From Piedraia hortae CBS 480.64 (lineage: Eukaryota), in the NCBI GenBank assembly GCA_010093745.1, contig MU006009.1, positions 62,001-104,333 of the forward strand: a stretch of 42,333 nucleotides of DNA. The letters are read 5' to 3'. Positions 6,732 through 13,424 of this stretch are shown one piece after another (the stretch's first letter is position 1; each line of letters starts with the position of its first letter). Below the pieces are notes generated by a model, which was not told the DNA's origin, searched no databases, and was given only the letters and a program-made list of their open reading frames with translations. The translations under genes were made by a program, and so were the position numbers.

Positions 6732-7768
6732 ATGGGTGATCCCAGCCCTTGGACGAACCATGAGAAGGTGTGTCAACTTGGCAGCAGTGCCAAAAACAAC
6801 TGCCTTCGGCCTGTTTACTCACTACGACTTGACAGAACGAACTGCTTGCAGAAATCATCAAAGTTTCGGAACCTCACCCAACAAAACTGTTCGATTTCAT
6901 AGTATATCATCAAATTCAGCCACGGTGGCCAGACACGCCGCTGCCGAGAGGTTGGTGTCATTTTTCCTGTCGCAGTGCCTAACTAAATAGCAGCACAGGC
7001 CGAACCCTTTATCAATGCCAAACTATTTACGACGAATTTGTACGAAGGTTTCCAGGAACAGCACCTTCACACGTCCATGCTGCGCCATATCAAGGATGGG
7101 TGCCTTCCAATCCCTACAAATTTCCAGGACATGCAGACCCATCCTTGTCTGGTGGTAGAGAGATTCGTCCTAAACCGCTGCCTCCCCAACATACACCGCC
7201 TCTGGCAAGTGAACCACTCAATAAACGCAAAAGAGGAAGGCCAACCAAGCTGGAGGCCCAGGCTAAGGCAAGCGTTGCCGAGGCTGCTGCGGCTGCGGCT
7301 GCGGCTGCAGCTGCACAAGAACAATCCTTAACGACGTTGCATTCCCAACCTCGCTCTGGCTACATGGCCTCGCAATCAAGCTCACTTTACGCTCCATCGG
7401 CTGCTGTTGCTGGTGGGCCTGCAGTGCGTTCGCCGTCGGCCTCGAAAATGCCGATATCCGCAGTCCTTACACCACAGCCTTCTGACTTGAGTGTGGATCA
7501 TGGTTCCCCAAGTGGAAAGCGACGTCGTACTAGATTTTCCAGATCAAGCCCGGAGGGCAGCTTAAGAAGCCACCGACCTGGAGGCAGTTCGACCTACCAA
7601 TCACCATACGTAGACGAGGAAGCTGAAGTCGTCGTTAAGCCGGCCTCTGCGCTTGGCATAATACAAAGTGATAGAGGCGCCTCGCAAAAAAAACCCGAGA
7701 CACAGTCAACGGAGCCTCACGAACCAGAGCCGCCGCCGGATCCTTTGACACAGCATTCAAGCTTCTAG
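6732..7768 (+). CDS. AT-hook-containing hypothetical nuclear protein; exons 6732-6767, 6836-6950 and 6999-7768
   Basis: Two GT-AG introns (6768-6835 and 6951-6998, the second with CTAAC) give a continuous frame: MGDPSPWTNHEK/NELLAEIIKVSEPHPTKLFDFIVYHQIQPRWPDTPLPR/GRTLYQCQ... It is followed by the AT-hook KRKRGRPTK and a poly-Ala tract. Confidence 0.75.
7283..7315 (+). repeat. GCT/GCG/GCA repeat encoding 11 Ala
   Basis: gctgctgcggctgcggctgcggctgcagctgca inside the AT-hook gene. Confidence 0.8.
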
Positions 7769-8049
7769 TTTGGCTTATTACACTTCTTTTATCGTGGTTC
7801 ACAATCGAACCATGCACACGACCAGTGTGGCATTCTCTCATTACATCCAATGTCTTCATTTGGAGAAATCTCGACCTTGTGAAGAGGAGCTTTGGTTCGC
7901 GTTGCAAGTGATGTGGTCTATAGTGTGTAGTTACCCTAGTTGTAATTAAAGGAATCTCTTACCCTATTCTAAAGGTATGAAGAACTAAATTACAACCAGT
8001 GGATTTCGGCATCTGATATAAGAGCAGCTTCTTCTGATACCCCCCCTCA

Positions 8050-8688
8050 TCAGTCCGGTTTATGGAATCCGCCAACGCGTGGTGTAGGCTTCCTGACAGA
8101 TCCAGACCCTGAGCTCCTTGCTCCAGCCGCCCTTGACCCAAATGACGAGGGCTTACCAGGAATATTGGACAAAATTCTGCGTCTAGAGGCGCTCGAATTG
8201 CTTCCAGCCACACTGCCCTTGGTTAACCGTCTAACGCCTAACGCTGTTTTGCGGCCGCTCCCGCTCCCGGTTTGGGCCTGTTTCTTCTCTGGTGACTCGC
8301 GCTTTGCTTCATTGGCCGCGTCGGCAGCATCATAGACAAATGCCGTGACCACCATTTTCTCACCGTAATCCTTTGCGTGGATGTCGCTGATATACACTTT
8401 ATTGACATCATTTTTCCGTTCCAGCGCAGTGTTTTTGCCCGGTGTAGCCTTCTTGGTCATAGTGACATAATGTTTGAGTAGATTTTCGGCAGTCTGAGCC
8501 GCAAATGGGAGGGTTTTCATGGCCTGTTTGTTGTAATAGTAAGCGCTCGTTTGCCATTGTTGCGCACAGATTACGGTTCGCCATGGCTTGATAACGCTGT
8601 TTGGCGATTTGAAAAGATTTTCATTCAATGGAGCGAGAGAAACAGCGCGTTGCTGAGTGGCCACCGCCGCTCTTTGCACAGAGGCCAT
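8050..8688 (-). CDS. rps3: Mitochondrial ribosomal protein uS3m (rps3/VAR1/S5), N-terminal half, nuclear-encoded (212 aa)
   Basis: QQWQTSAYYYNKQAMKTLPFAAQTAENLLKHY...NKVYISDIHAKDYGEKMVVTAFVYD matches the fungal mt-Rps3 N-terminal motifs (approx. EWxNSIYxYNKNxxKxLP..NxLIKSY; NKIFVSKAExKHTxxKVIITLYxYN). Preceded by a presequence-like MASVQRAAVATQQRAVSLAP and followed by a Gly/Ser/Arg-rich tail. No introns. Confidence 0.75.
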   Translation of the reverse strand: MASVQRAAVATQQRAVSLAPLNENLFKSPNSVIKPWRTVICAQQWQTSAYYYNKQAMKTLPFAAQTAENLLKHYVTMTKKATPGKNTALERKNDVNKVYISDIHAKDYGEKMVVTAFVYDAADAANEAKRESPEKKQAQTGSGSGRKTALGVRRLTKGSVAGSNSSASRRRILSNIPGKPSSFGSRAAGARSSGSGSVRKPTPRVGGFHKPD

Positions 8689-8828
8689 GGCGGTTTGCGA
8701 CTGCAGTGAACCTTCGGAGCTCGGGGGTGAGGTCGAGGGTAACGGGATCGTTCCGTTATGCCGTGTAAAATCACCCGCCCGTAATCGACATGATATTAAC
8801 TGCGCGCTGCCATCCAACTCATTGCTCT
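8689..8828. promoter_or_regulatory. Putative bidirectional promoter between the two rps3 half-genes
   Basis: 140 bp separate the two divergent ATGs (8688 on -, 8829 on +). Inferred from geometry only. Confidence 0.45.
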
Positions 8829-9425
8829 ATGTCTACCAACATTCGGAAGGCTGCGGCGGCATCTGTCGACCTCCTTGATCCTGCGCGCAAACAGGGTATC
8901 CAGTCGCTTTTGTCAAAAGTCTACAATAAACCTGTCGAGCTCCGATTAGTCAAACACTCCCGACCTCATCTCGATGGCGATATTCTTGCCGGCGTGGTTG
9001 CGCAACAACTACAGGATATGAGAGCAGTGCCGCGTCGGATCGTCCGAGATGCTGCATGGAAAATGAAGCTGCCCAGCAAACCAAGCATTACCAACATGAC
9101 CCAAGCTCGATTTCGACCGGGAACTGTGGTATCCTCACAACAGCTTCAGAACAGCAGCACACCCGCAACTACCAGCGAGATTATGAAGAGCCTCCGGCTG
9201 CGTCAAGTCACATCAGTCCGCATCTCTGCCGCGGGCCGTCTAAGCTCCCGTCTCACGGCCGACAGGTCTCAGAAAAAGGAAGCCCAACGTGGTCCAAAGG
9301 CTGCTCTGCCTGGGCATGGCCAGATGGTGCGAGGCTACATCAATTCGCTTCGAACATTCTCCAAACGCGCAGGCAAGAGACGAATCGGTGGATACGGAGT
9401 GAAGGTTTCTTTGGGACACAGATAA
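8829..9425 (+). CDS. rps3: Mitochondrial ribosomal protein uS3m (rps3/VAR1/S5), C-terminal half, nuclear-encoded (198 aa; alternative ATG at 8790)
   Basis: LLSKVYNKPVELRLVKHSRPHLDGDILA...SVRISAAGRLSSRLTADRS...MVRGYINS...KRRIGGYGVKVSL matches the uS3m C-terminal domain (approx. LSKIYNKKVEFNIVNLKYxHLNSDI; GIRLEAxGRLTxRxTASRS; LRGxxKSN; KRRIGAFGVKGWI). Confidence 0.82.
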   Translation: MSTNIRKAAAASVDLLDPARKQGIQSLLSKVYNKPVELRLVKHSRPHLDGDILAGVVAQQLQDMRAVPRRIVRDAAWKMKLPSKPSITNMTQARFRPGTVVSSQQLQNSSTPATTSEIMKSLRLRQVTSVRISAAGRLSSRLTADRSQKKEAQRGPKAALPGHGQMVRGYINSLRTFSKRAGKRRIGGYGVKVSLGHR

Positions 9426-9786
9426 CAAAAATGCAGTATATTGGGAGCGGCTTTGCGTCCAAGATCTGGTGTTCTGGCTGTAAGTTACTATCATACTACA
9501 TATCAATACGATCTCCAACAGACGGCTCAATTGTCGTGTTAAGGTACGCTAAATGTCACATGTCACATCTGACGTTGGTAAGACGGCGCGGGCCGCCCGG
9601 AAGTGCAGCTTTCCGCCAGAAAAGTGCAGCTTCATCCAGCGTAACTTCTTCCTTCCATCAAACTCCCTTTCCCGTCTTGTCATCTTTTGTGTGTTACGTA
9701 TTGTCTCATTCACTTGTGAAAAATCTCCTGGTTTGCTTTGCCGTTAATTTGCTTTACGCGCTCTGGAGCGCTTTCAGCAGACAACC

Positions 9787-12700
9787 ATGACTCTTGATGA
9801 CCTGTTTGCTCAGCTAAAGGCCTCGGAGGGTGGCTCACGCTCCCCGCAGAGGCCGTACGAATTCACAAGCCCCAGCATTCAGCCGTCGTTTGGGTCACTG
9901 CGGAACTCCACGACAAGCCCCGCGTCCGCCTCAAATCGGATACTTACCGCTGAGGATCTTGCAGCCTCCCTCAGCAAAACCATGGGATCGAACTCTGCTA
10001 AGCTTCCTCGCTCGGTTGGTGCTAATAGCCCTGGAAACGCGGCGGGAGTTCAAAGCCCATCAGCCGGCCAATCCAAGGACTATCTGCTCAATCTAATCAA
10101 AACACCGGGTGGAGCAAAGGCTGAGACAAAAGCCAACGGTGACAAGCCTGGTGAACCCACGATGGGAAAACTTGCCCTGGAGTTCGCGGAGTCCAACAGC
10201 AGGGCTAAGTCCCCCCCTCACCAGTTTGATTTTGCACCGGCTCTTGAACACCCGACTTCCAAGCCCTCTGAGCAAGACAAGGCGTCCAAATTTACATTTG
10301 TGAACCCCTTTGCCCAGCTCAATGCCTCAATTAATGCCTCAACCAATTCGACGCCCAAAGCTACTTCCCCTGCTCTGTCGCCCCCGCGAAAAGTTGATAT
10401 TGCGAAGCACCAACGAGATGGATCGGACTTGCAGTCTTCTTCGGCACCGGCGACCAAGAAGAGCAAAAAAGCCACTGTAGAGGACGAGGTTGAGCCCAAG
10501 AAGGAGAGTGTCTCGCAGGCTCTTGAAGGTGTTGGCGAAAAGGTCAATAAGCAGGTCGAAAAGGCCTTGGCCAAGGCTGAGAAGAAGGCCTCGCCGCCTG
10601 ACCCTGCTTCTTTCAACGAAGTCCAGGGCCAGGAAGTTGATGCTAATTGGGAAACTGCCGAGGACTCGGCCAGCGGAAATAACAACTCCAAGGTCACGGT
10701 TTACAATTTCCCAATGAAGCCATTCGTATCAATTACCATTGGCAACGATTCCTCTGCCATTCCCTCGCTGGATAAGGAACGTTTGCTGCATCTGGCTCGG
10801 TTTAAGATGTCGTTCGATGCAGTGAATCGTAACCTCATCACGGCCAGACAGTCTCACTTTGCTTATGCACGCATTGGCACGAAGAGGGATAACAACTACC
10901 TTCGCCTGGTCCACCAGGGCACGGGAACCCATCAGCAGCTATTTGCCAGAAATACCGAGCGCATCTTTAACATTCAGTGCTGCGGTACTTATATCAAGCC
11001 TGAGCGTGACATGCAGATTTTGCTTTGCACGGGCATCGATGGCACGGTGTTCTGGGCAAGATTGGTGGAAAATTCTGAGGCGGAAACCATAACAATTCCT
11101 CCGTACCCGGCGGCCGAAGATGCTTCGCCCAACAGTATGGTGAAAACCCGCGCCAAGTGCAGTTCTTGTCATCCAGAATTTTTTGCCCTGAGCCGTACTC
11201 GCATGATCTACATTGTCAGTCCCAATATATTCAAGGGATACGTGGACGAAAAATCCCGCAAGGTTCATACGGTCAAGTACATTGATGATCACTGCCTTCG
11301 CATTAATACGGGCAAAGCTTGCAAAGACTATATCTTTGCCGGGGACGACTCGATGATCTTGACGGTTGACAAGGCTAACGCTATCAAGTTCTGGGACATT
11401 GGGGAACTCACTCGCCTGGCGGGCGACGTAATGGAGGACAAGCACTGGAAGGAGATCACGGAACCGGTGATGACGCTGACTGCGAAGAGTCCGGGTGGGA
11501 AGGGCGCGGAGAAGATGTCTGCTTTTTCTGTCACCCTGCTCGATAAAGAGCGTCCGCATAACAAGAAGGCGGCTCTTCGCTACATGTTGGTTGGTTTCAA
11601 GCAAAATTACGTCTTGCAGCTCTGGGACTTGGCTCTCGGAAAGGTTGTGCAGGAGCTGCGACTGCCCCATACCGATGGTAGCGGCTTCTGCAGCATCAAT
11701 TACCACCCGCGGACGTCGATCATCACGCTTGGCCATCCAGCGCGTAACTCTGTGTTCTTCTTCCACGTCAGTGCGCCCAAGTACAACCTCCCACCCATGA
11801 GCCAGGCTCAATACGTAAATATGCTCGCGAGCGGAGATCCAAACTTGCCCCGTATGGAGAGCACGGCCATTATCAGTGGAGTCCGCGAGATGTCGCTTGC
11901 AAACTGCGGCCAGCTGTACAGTCTTGACTTGTTGCCGACGCCAGTAGATGATTCATCGGCCAAAGAGCAAGGTACGCATAGCCTGTTCGAGCTGTACATT
12001 TACCATTCTCGGGGCTGCGATGCCTTCCCGATTAAGCCTGCTGATCTCGGCTGGGACTCGTTGCTCAGGTTGACGGGAACCGTTGATTCGTCCAAGACTG
12101 ACTTCATTCGCATGGAACCGCTTGAGGAGTCGGGCGATGAAGCCTCTCCGCCCAAGGGAGTTAGAAAGCCTACCGGCAATGCGAAGACTGGAGCAGAGGA
12201 CACTGAGCAGTCCACCAAACCCTTGACAGAAGAGCAGCCTGGGGAGGATCAGAAGGAATCGAAGGATGAGGCTCAGGAGGAACCACCGACAGTCGCAAAA
12301 AGCACCAAAGACGCTGAAGTGTATGAACCGTCGGTCCCGTTGACGAATGACAGCATGCCGAATTTGATCAACGACAACTTCCAGTCTCTCTACAAACGCC
12401 TTGACGCCGATAAACGCGTCTCGGAGGCCGCTGGTGCAGCCAAGCAGGATGCAATCCTCCGTCTCATTTCTAGCACGTTGACTGATAATGTTCACCAAAG
12501 CTTGAGCAGCATCGTCAACGCTAGCATTGAGGCCAGCGTGGTCCCCAGTCTTGTCAAAGTGATTGACGACACTTTGGGAGCCAAACTTGGCCCGTCCATT
12601 CGTCGCGAGATTTCTAACACCCTGCCCAACACCCTTAAACAGGCACTGATGGACTCCAAGGTGCACAATGCGATCGCCAACGTCACGGCTTGTAGTATCC

Positions 12701-13424
12701 AAAAGGAAATTGCCCAGCAGATTCACACCATTAACAAGACCACACAGAGCGTGCTTGATGGCTTTGAATCACGCAACACGAAGCGTTTTCAGGCTGCTGA
12801 AGCACAACGACGTGAGGACCAGGCTAAGATCCAGCAATTGACGGATATGGTTGAGGCAATGTCTTTGAAGGTGCAGGAACTGGCTAGTGCTAAGCAAGCC
12901 GAACGCGAGGAGCCCAAGATGGCTGAGGAATCTCAACTGAAGACCCTGAGCGAAGAGGTGGAGGAAATCAAGAATGAGTTGGTGTCTGGCAATTTCGAAG
13001 CAGGCACGATCATGGTAAGGGCAGTAAAGTGAGATGATATAATGGCTGACACGAAATGTAGTGGATCAAGTCGGCTCGAAAGATTGAGCTGTTTGACGAG
13101 CTTTTCTCAATGGTGAATCCGCAGTACTTGACTGAGGTCTCGACTCTAGCTCAAGTATCGGTCACGGCTGCCTTGACTTCCTCGTTTGACACGCTTGTGC
13201 ACGAGCGCCTGGATTATCTCAGCACGGTGCTTAGCATGATGGATACGCGCGACAAGGACGTTGCCCCCATCTTGTCCACGGTCATGGGGGTGCTGGCTCA
13301 GCGATTGCACTCGTTGCAGCTCGTGTGTTCGTGTGCCTCTCCCAAGGACGAGGATTTGGTCAAGAAGATCCAGCTGCTACACGATCATGCGAAGTTCCTC
13401 GAGCAAATGGCGACTTCGGAGTGA
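9787..13424 (+). CDS. EDC4/Pdc1-like mRNA-decapping scaffold; exons 9787-13014 and 13062-13424
   Basis: Low-complexity N-terminus, VYNFPMKPFVSI motif, beta-propeller-like region (LRYMLVGFKQNYVLQLWDLALGKVVQEL, GHPARNSVFFFHVSAPKY), coiled coil and helical C-terminus. A 47-bp intron at 13015-13061 (GTAAGG...GCTGAC...TAG) links to the 13110 ORF in frame. Confidence 0.72.

Follow-up and report, generated by a model that had tools for sequence, protein, structure and literature searches.

A probable two-gene form of mitoribosomal protein uS3m, encoded head to head in the nuclear genome of the fungus Piedraia hortae

In a stretch of 42,333 nucleotides from the fungus Piedraia hortae CBS 480.64 (assembly GCA_010093745.1, contig MU006009.1, positions 62,001 to 104,333 of the forward strand; hereafter the window), we find two divergent genes that probably derive from one gene for the mitochondrial ribosomal protein uS3m (rps3/VAR1/S5), which would have been transferred to the nucleus and then broken in two, with products that would together rebuild uS3m. 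Homology comparisons show that the minus-strand and plus-strand proteins are complementary, non-overlapping parts of fungal mitochondrial uS3m, and the split is conserved across at least two fungal families. The two genes, referred to here as the N-half and the C-half, and the interval between them are:

8050..8688, minus strand: uS3m N-half gene, an ATG-to-stop open reading frame (ORF) of 212 aa with its TGA stop at 8050-8052
8689..8828, no strand: divergent intergenic region, 140 bp between the two ATGs, the presumed shared bidirectional promoter
8829..9425, plus strand: uS3m C-half gene, 198 aa with a TAA stop, its start chosen from relatives

The longest plus-strand ORF runs from 8790 to 9425 (211 aa) and contains a second in-frame ATG at 8829 (MSTNIRK...). 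In an alignment of relatives, the position of the latter is the start in 14 of 16, the upstream ATG at 8790 is not conserved, and the protein collection's model of the C-half (P0003) has 198 aa, matching the 8829 start. With this conserved start, the earlier note's description of the locus, made from its sequence alone, as two intact, intron-less divergent ORFs with ATGs 140 bp apart holds; the relatives' alignments show no gaps requiring introns in either ORF. Read in the standard code, neither ORF is interrupted; the three Trp codons are TGG, no in-frame TGA occurs, and the G+C content (GC) is 0.515 and 0.541 overall and 0.52 and 0.53 at third codon positions (GC3). Two further plus-strand ORFs, 9056-9790 (244 aa) and 8687-8878 (63 aa), lie in other frames over parts of the C-half or of the intergenic region; they are unsupported and probably due to chance.

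The N-half consists of a presequence resembling a mitochondrial targeting signal (residues 1 to ~40), a conserved core (~41-130; QWQTSAYYYNK...KTLP...LLKHY...NKVYIS...VVTAFVYD, followed by a helix) and a variable Ser/Gly/Arg-rich tail. Its core carries the consensus of the uS3m N-terminal block (EW.NS.Y.[YF]NK..K.LP ... [FY]VS..E.K ... hairpin). The C-half comprises the last helix and strand of the KH-like N-domain together with the entire uS3 C-terminal domain, with motifs in the order KPVELRLV...HLDGDIL...AAGRLSSRLTADRS...GKRRIGGYGVKV. All motifs previously quoted for the two halves were recovered where they had been placed: WQTSAYYYNK, KTLP, LLKHY, NKVYIS and VVTAFVYD in the minus-strand ORF, and LSKVYNKPVEL, HLDGDIL, RISAAGRLSSRLTADRS, RGY and KRRIGGYGVK in the plus-strand ORF. 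The two uS3m blocks do not stand in one polypeptide here, as each is encoded by a separate ORF with a start and a stop of its own, one on either strand.

The C-half matches the Pfam family VAR1 (PF05316) with 42.2 bits (gathering cut-off 33; E-value 1.2e-10) over profile positions 47-193 of 195. Searched as a single sequence, it also matches residues 242-300 and 423-502 of PDB chain 6yw5_CC, which is uS3m of the Neurospora crassa mitoribosome under the entry name 'Ribosomal protein S5, mitochondrial', and bacterial uS3 from about residue 83 onward, while a profile of 17 C-halves reaches residues 242-310 and 422-502 of 6yw5_CC (E 3.9e-13) and 13 bacterial uS3 chains at approximately residues 84-137 (E ~3e-4). 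The N-half has no Pfam match at E <= 1; its sole match in a single-sequence search of the PDB is residues 52-135 of 6yw5_CC (E 0.044), and a profile of 25 N-halves retrieves residues 53-140 of this chain (E 8.2e-6) as the sole match among 177,635 distinct PDB sequences. Aligned by hhalign with a profile of fungal mitochondrial uS3m (A3; 30 AT-rich mitochondrial proteins, 470 columns), the N-half falls on columns 59-150 (probability 97.1%, E 4.9e-11) and the C-half on columns 261-468 (probability 99.2%, E 6.4e-20), with zero overlap and only the variable middle absent. These profile-profile E-values put the homology far beyond chance, and the placements agree with the earlier proposal of complementary, non-overlapping halves.

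The point of separation appears to lie within a domain. Residues 31-94 of the C-half align with residues 83-145 of bacterial uS3 and thus start before the C-domain; we take the bacterial segment to span a helix and the final strand of the KH-like N-domain and to continue into the first helix of the C-domain. Should this view of the bacterial structure be right, the N-domain sheet would have to be completed between the two chains.

An exhaustive phmmer search with the N-half among 1.84 billion representatives returned 34 proteins at E <= 1e-3, one of them the window's own fragment. Twenty-eight of the other 33 belong to no Pfam family, comprise the N-half only and have nuclear-type composition, and five carry VAR1, three of which (P0046, P0048, P0051) are long, AT-rich and mitochondrial, with the N-block at the N-terminus. 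The nearest ESM Atlas clusters are 'hypothetical protein' (0.94, 0.93), 'Ribosomal protein S3' (0.90) and a VAR1 cluster (0.90), which serve as leads only, at a recognition of 2153, under the 2300 mark. Four AT-rich mitochondrial-type proteins of 125-272 aa (P0047, P0049, P0050, P0052) carry the N-block only; most likely these are full-length mitochondrial rps3 cut by gene callers reading TGA, which encodes Trp in these mitochondria, as a stop.

The locus lies on a fungal nuclear chromosome, since the other long ORFs of the window are ordinary nuclear genes. The pair itself is not of the type found in mitochondrial DNA (mtDNA), being flanked by nuclear housekeeping genes and having a GC of 0.52-0.54, TGG for Trp and no TGA.

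The divergent arrangement recurs in relatives. We scanned JGI metagenome contigs with the C-half alignment and then sought N-halves by tblastn, finding 16 loci that hold a C-half at 42-52% protein identity to the window. An N-half lies directly upstream on the opposite strand in 11 of these 16, which are all 11 of the informative loci, as the contigs of L008, L012, L014, L015 and L016 break off within the C-half or no more than ~300 bp upstream of it. The spacing of the two ATGs in bp is 186 (L001), 196 (L002, L003), 179 (L004, L013), 282 (L005), 274 (L006), 289 (L007), 285 (L009, L011) and 273 (L010), compared with 140 in the window. The loci with a divergent pair derive from several different, unrelated assemblies, so that the head-to-head layout, noted before from one locus, is real and not an assembly inversion. 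At L002 (45-1002) and L003 (322-1279), the reading frame of the C-half runs on unbroken well upstream, through the intergenic region and past the N-half start; gene models covering such frames have 312-319 aa (312 in P0084), in which the conserved start is an internal ATG (L002:408), and these models are probably over-extended.

Both halves evolve under purifying selection. We applied the Nei-Gojobori method to the conserved cores and set aside as saturated all pairs with a proportion of synonymous differences (pS) >= 0.65 (17 of 36 N-half pairs and 27 of 66 C-half pairs). For the N-half, five pairs within one lineage at a synonymous distance (dS) of 0.39-0.69 gave ratios of nonsynonymous to synonymous change (dN/dS) of 0.13-0.28, and L005 and L007 differ by dN 0 at dS 0.05. 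For the C-half, where L005, L006, L007, L009 and L011 were missed by the motif filter and are absent from the counts, L001 and L004 differ by dN 0 and dS 0.21 over 175 codons, L001 and L013 give dN/dS 0.11, and pairs at dS ~1 give 0.14-0.28. Five residues of the N-block (W45, Y50, N53, P61 and L70) are invariant across all 25 rows of the N-half alignment (A2). The tails that follow the N-half core and a Lys/Glu/Arg-rich helix (8050-8330 in the window) are highly variable, low-complexity sequences rich in Gly, Arg, Ser and Pro, from ~60 to ~200 residues long, with RGG-like repeats in several relatives and without a counterpart in single-chain nuclear proteins.

Such single-chain nuclear forms exist in related fungi. 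One protein of 361 aa and nuclear-type composition (P0040) carries both blocks in normal order, and a search with it found 28 more, giving 29 single-chain nuclear-type uS3m proteins in all (288-389 aa, on contigs up to 4.2 Mb). The unsplit proteins are 47-56% identical to P0040, the split C-halves 43-52%, and in alignment the unsplit proteins are collinear with the window's N-half followed by its C-half. A linker of ~25-35 residues holds the break point; it is preceded by the helix behind 'AFVYD' and leads up to 'LDP..Q.GLQSLL'. Among the carriers are the following:

Unsplit: Zasmidium cellare, Zymoseptoria tritici, Cercospora kikuchii, Septoria linicola ('Putative ribosomal protein VAR1'), Dothistroma septosporum ('ribosomal protein S3-like protein'), Lecanosticta acicola, Pseudocercospora musae
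C-half only (~186-204 aa): Oleoguttula mirabilis, Recurvomyces mirabilis, Meristemomyces frigidus, Teratosphaeria destructans, Teratosphaeria nubilosa, Neohortaea acidophila, Vermiconidia calcicola

Cercospora, Septoria, Dothistroma, Lecanosticta and Pseudocercospora are presumably all Mycosphaerellaceae. Zasmidium belongs to this family in the NCBI taxonomy, and Zymoseptoria tritici is assigned to it in a passage of PMC6221350. The sole named N-half record, from Acidomyces richmondensis, is annotated 'hypothetical protein'. By NCBI taxonomy, Vermiconidia belongs to Extremaceae and the other split carriers looked up, which did not include Teratosphaeria destructans, to Teratosphaeriaceae; all are Mycosphaerellales. 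In a quick IQ-TREE tree of the C-domain (63 rows, 196 columns), the nuclear forms make up one group against the seven mitochondrial sequences (SH-aLRT support 99), and the 29 unsplit proteins form one clade (SH-aLRT 100).

These comparisons support, at the level of sequence, fission after nuclear transfer, as the earlier note had suggested; the unsplit nuclear orthologues of Mycosphaerellaceae fit that order of events. Because the mitochondrial ancestor is a single chain, one whole-gene transfer followed by one fission is the simplest history, and a single inversion is the best explanation of the fission. We propose that rps3 moved to the nucleus as one gene in an ancestor of Mycosphaerellales, and that one inversion in the Teratosphaeriaceae/Extremaceae lineage flipped the 5' half; one breakpoint would lie upstream of the gene, the other in the short linker that joins the N-block helix to the 'LDP..Q.GLQSLL' helix. 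The ATG of the flipped half would then have faced the start of the 3' half, with the former upstream region lying between them. The C-half would have acquired its own ATG and a short basic N-terminus, whereas the N-half would have retained the original presequence and read on into new sequence up to a stop, gaining a low-complexity tail; such reading into new sequence would explain the Gly/Arg/Ser-rich tails of differing length. The 140-290 bp between the heads would now drive both genes, and both products would be imported into mitochondria and there reconstitute a single uS3m at the small-subunit mRNA-channel entry; as the gene is cut within the N-domain, this domain would be completed in trans. 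Taken together, this picture of a clade-wide two-chain uS3m, cut within a domain by one inversion, completed in trans and encoded by genes locked head to head around a shared region of 140-290 bp, is one that we advance tentatively, with slightly more doubt than belief.

A possible further step is represented by P0034 (316 aa), a permuted single chain with the VAR1/C-half part at residues 15-196 and the N-block at 207-293, lacking a presequence, which sits on a long branch among the split forms in the C-domain tree (SH-aLRT 91). As gene callers cannot fuse genes on opposite strands, the genome encoding P0034 must be arranged differently, either as a tandem of C then N or as a true permuted fusion.

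Features of the N-terminus and predictions of the complex bear on how the two chains would work together. The window's N-half has 43 residues before its core, with 5 Arg/Lys and 1 Asp/Glu, and across this protein and 11 relatives checked, the corresponding segments have 37-65 residues, 5-9 Arg/Lys and 0-1 Asp/Glu. C-half relatives have in common a short 'M-A/S-...-R-R' N-terminus, with 11-19 residues before the first acidic residue. Prediction of the complex of N-half and C-half gave a median interface score (ipSAE) of 0.53 (0.60, 0.53, 0.49), compared with 0.01 for the best of three controls; at least 60% of contacts agree among runs, and the partner's per-residue confidence (pLDDT) is at least 55. 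Of 78 solved complexes, 51 reach the mark used for such predictions, as do 2 of 108 mismatched pairs, and the range at or below 0.60 holds 5 of the 78 solved complexes together with all 4 passing mismatches (of 180). Moreover, the pass may reflect likeness and not binding, because a single-chain uS3m structure (6yw5) exists. The prediction thus lends weak support to the two chains binding each other, and the two-chain assembly put forward in the earlier note stays at that strength. In N. crassa, the mRNA-channel entry is made up of uS3m together with uS4m and uS5m, and uS3m extensions help build an mRNA-loading platform (passages of PMC7560712); we assign the pair the putative mRNA-channel entry role of uS3m.

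Several considerations weigh against a functional two-chain uS3m of single origin. Transcription of both genes, mitochondrial import of both chains and their presence in the mitoribosome are steps that we infer, and co-expression from a shared bidirectional promoter is likewise presumed: a k-mer scan of eight intergenic regions found no 8-mer common to at least four of them and no conserved motif, and the shared 7-mers come mostly from three closely related loci. The C-half has only ~12-18 residues with 2-3 Arg/Lys before its conserved domain, which is short for a presequence, and AlphaFold2 models of the single halves are poor (mean pLDDT 59.1 for the N-half and 54.8 for the C-half). Piedraia hortae may also possess a further rps3 copy, mitochondrial or nuclear. 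Among the selection estimates, comparisons with L010 and L012 give dN/dS 0.55-0.70 at dN ~0.5, which we take as dS saturation, and L004 versus L013 gives 0.50 on very few changes. Finally, in the rooted free tree the unsplit clade is nested within a grade of split forms, and as a result the direction of change rests on parsimony and the mitochondrial single-chain outgroup and not on the tree alone. Constraining the 27 split rows together gave a log-likelihood 11.4 higher than the free quick search (approximately unbiased (AU) test p 0.737), so that a single fission is compatible with the data. We considered and rejected re-fusion as a reading of the grade, given the better constrained tree and the very long mitochondrial outgroup branches.

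The most substantial rival explanation is that only the C-half works as uS3m, the N-half being a leftover with another role or a dispensable accessory that does not sit with the C-half in the ribosome. The uS3m C-domain has been deleted in Holozoa (a passage of PMC7326499), so the protein can work without one domain in other lineages, and the N-half's want of a Pfam match, its long variable low-complexity tail and the weak complex-prediction support would suit such a role. Yet the N-block is kept in 25 of 25 A2 rows under purifying selection, all 11 informative loci keep the N-half and the C-half in head-to-head linkage, and a split inside the N-domain would leave the first helix and strand of the C-half without partner elements; we consider this explanation unlikely. 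That the two halves are rejoined post-transcriptionally, by trans-splicing or a similar process, into one uS3m chain is more improbable again. This idea, for which we saw no support, was considered only because split organelle-derived genes sometimes rejoin at the RNA level, whereas the C-half opens with an ATG of its own, aligned at one position in 14 of 16 relatives, a stop closes the N-half behind tails that vary greatly in length, no joints are reported in contigs over 7000-10500, and the C-then-N order of P0034 is incompatible with a need for N-to-C joining.

The two remaining explanations deny that the pair is what it appears to be, and we give both almost no credence. One holds that a collinear single gene was wrongly inverted during assembly. 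The sole DNA contig spanning 7000-10500 (run X1, 0 differences) leaves some room for this, as it is perhaps the window's own source and hence not independent; contigs from run X2, which belongs to another study and whose RNA type is only guessed, cover 7694-8320, 8352-8621 and 8818-9511 with 0 differences, and among the X2 contigs listed none lies on the bin 8638-8754 and none bridges both genes. The recurrence of the layout in 11 loci from unrelated assemblies, at 42-52% protein identity to the window, stands against such an error, as do the separate proteins called in many genomes for the C-half (~198 aa) and the N-half (190-340 aa). The other holds that the pair is a decaying nuclear copy of mitochondrial DNA (NUMT) that has kept two open frames by chance. 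Although the sequence does derive from a mitochondrial gene, its GC of 0.52-0.54 contrasts with the 28-32% reported for related mtDNAs (PMC6221350, Table 4), Trp is encoded by TGG with no in-frame TGA, the frames are conserved with close-pair dN/dS well below 1, and orthologues occur across two families. The earlier note's view of old, constrained genes and not a recent NUMT is borne out by the low dN/dS in close pairs and by the layout kept in relatives.

Some of this history is already known. Passages of PMC6221350 and PMC5626475 give rps3 as absent from the mtDNAs of Zymoseptoria tritici and Zasmidium cellare, and the latter source, from 2017, states that no nuclear rps3 counterpart was found in Dothideomycetes. 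Wai et al. 2019, as cited in a passage of PMC7902536, identified a nuclear-encoded rps3 orthologue in some Capnodiales, and PMC7272585 cites the same work for the movement of rps3 to the nucleus. The nuclear location of rps3 in Capnodiales is already published, then, and only the split is possibly new: the earlier note's suggestion that this layout had not been described stands insofar as our searches of full-text literature turned up neither a split uS3m in fungi nor a divergent pair, a point on which Wai et al. 2019 and Korovesi et al. 2018, known through citations, may bear. Like the nuclear uS3m of Mycosphaerellaceae, a group whose mtDNAs lack rps3, the pair belongs to the same gene lineage, has nuclear-type composition and is collinear across N-half and C-half. 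Unlike in that family, where one gene encodes one chain of ~357-370 aa, two opposite-strand genes are found here, the N-half with a new stop and tail and the C-half with a new start. Database names of the nuclear single-chain form are 'Small ribosomal subunit protein uS3m' and 'Putative ribosomal protein VAR1'. As in mtDNA-encoded fungal uS3m (yeast VAR1, N. crassa S5), both conserved blocks are present and a role at the mRNA-channel entry would be expected; the mtDNA-encoded form is one AT-rich gene of 400-600 aa with long insertions, whereas here the insertions are gone and the genes are two and nuclear.

Split forms of mitoribosomal proteins are also found outside fungi. Split mitochondrial rps3 is known in ciliates (PMC3318907), and in Tetrahymena the N-domain is assembled from mS92, mS31 and one uS3m strand, mS92 and mS31 being nuclear-encoded and uS3m (Ymf64) mitochondrial (passages of PMC7326499). 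The fungal pair resembles this three-piece uS3m in that the N-domain would come from separate polypeptides, with the C-domain piece also giving an N-domain strand, in an apparent break of the same kind. In contrast, the Tetrahymena case belongs to another supergroup, is an independent event spread over two genomes and has its assembly seen by cryo-EM, whereas the fungal genes are both nuclear, adjacent and divergent, and their joint assembly is deduced from the genes. The split uL2m (rpl2) of plants is named as a parallel in a passage of PMC7326499. There, too, a mitoribosomal protein gene is broken in two, with both products sitting in the ribosome, though in another protein and another kingdom. 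To our knowledge, the plant uL2m halves do not form a divergent pair. The mtDNAs of Bipolaris sorokiniana and B. cookei carry short adjacent 'rps3' (399 bp) and 'rps5' (555 bp) genes between cox3 and nad1 (PMC7225605, PMC11277600). Both names are used for uS3m and the gene sizes resemble the N-block and the C-half; Pleosporales mtDNA may carry a split or frame-shifted uS3m.

In most fungal mtDNAs, uS3m is the last ribosomal protein gene kept, and its retention is often discussed as a constraint of hydrophobicity or organelle assembly. A clade that moved uS3m to the nucleus and then cut it would show the protein's freedom once outside the organelle, and the forms described here may constitute a natural dated series from one mtDNA gene to one nuclear gene to two nuclear genes, and possibly on to a permuted re-fusion, which could serve the study of gene transfer, fission by inversion, the birth of start codons and import signals, and the origin of divergent pairs. 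The parallel with the three-piece uS3m of ciliates points to the same weak spot in the fold. If our reading is correct, the two-chain uS3m would give fungi their first described case of a split mitoribosomal protein, the published nuclear transfer would have been followed by a step not yet described, and P0034, with its C-then-N order, would show that the two chains fold independently of chain connectivity. As the N-half is a 'hypothetical protein' in its sole named record, annotations under-report a mitoribosomal protein in these fungi, and the 198-aa proteins labelled uS3m would represent half of it only. We regard the pair as a testable case of gene fission after organelle-to-nucleus transfer and not as a new principle.

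The neighbourhood of the pair agrees with the nuclear setting proposed in the earlier note, with PUF, Set2-like, EDC4-like, Nrd1/Seb1, citrate synthase, SelO and RRP36 genes in a window of 46-60% GC. The nuclear-type genes are:

Plus strand, 9787-13032: EDC4-like beta-propeller gene (PF24106, 1081 aa), 360 bp downstream of the C-half
Elsewhere in the window: PUF; Set2-like SET/SRI/WW; Nrd1/Seb1
Elsewhere in the window: citrate synthase; SelO; class-III aminotransferase; N1221/DUF3402 protein; RRP36

The EDC4-like gene was not found in the other loci with 3-4 kb downstream of the C-half and recurs after the C-half in L015 (1627-1863) and L016 (2619-3893) only. A Ser/Pro-rich ORF of 134 aa (7364-7768, plus strand) with no Pfam match is flanked by the Set2-like gene region on one side and the N-half gene's 3' end on the other, and its stretch is covered by X2 contigs at high depth.

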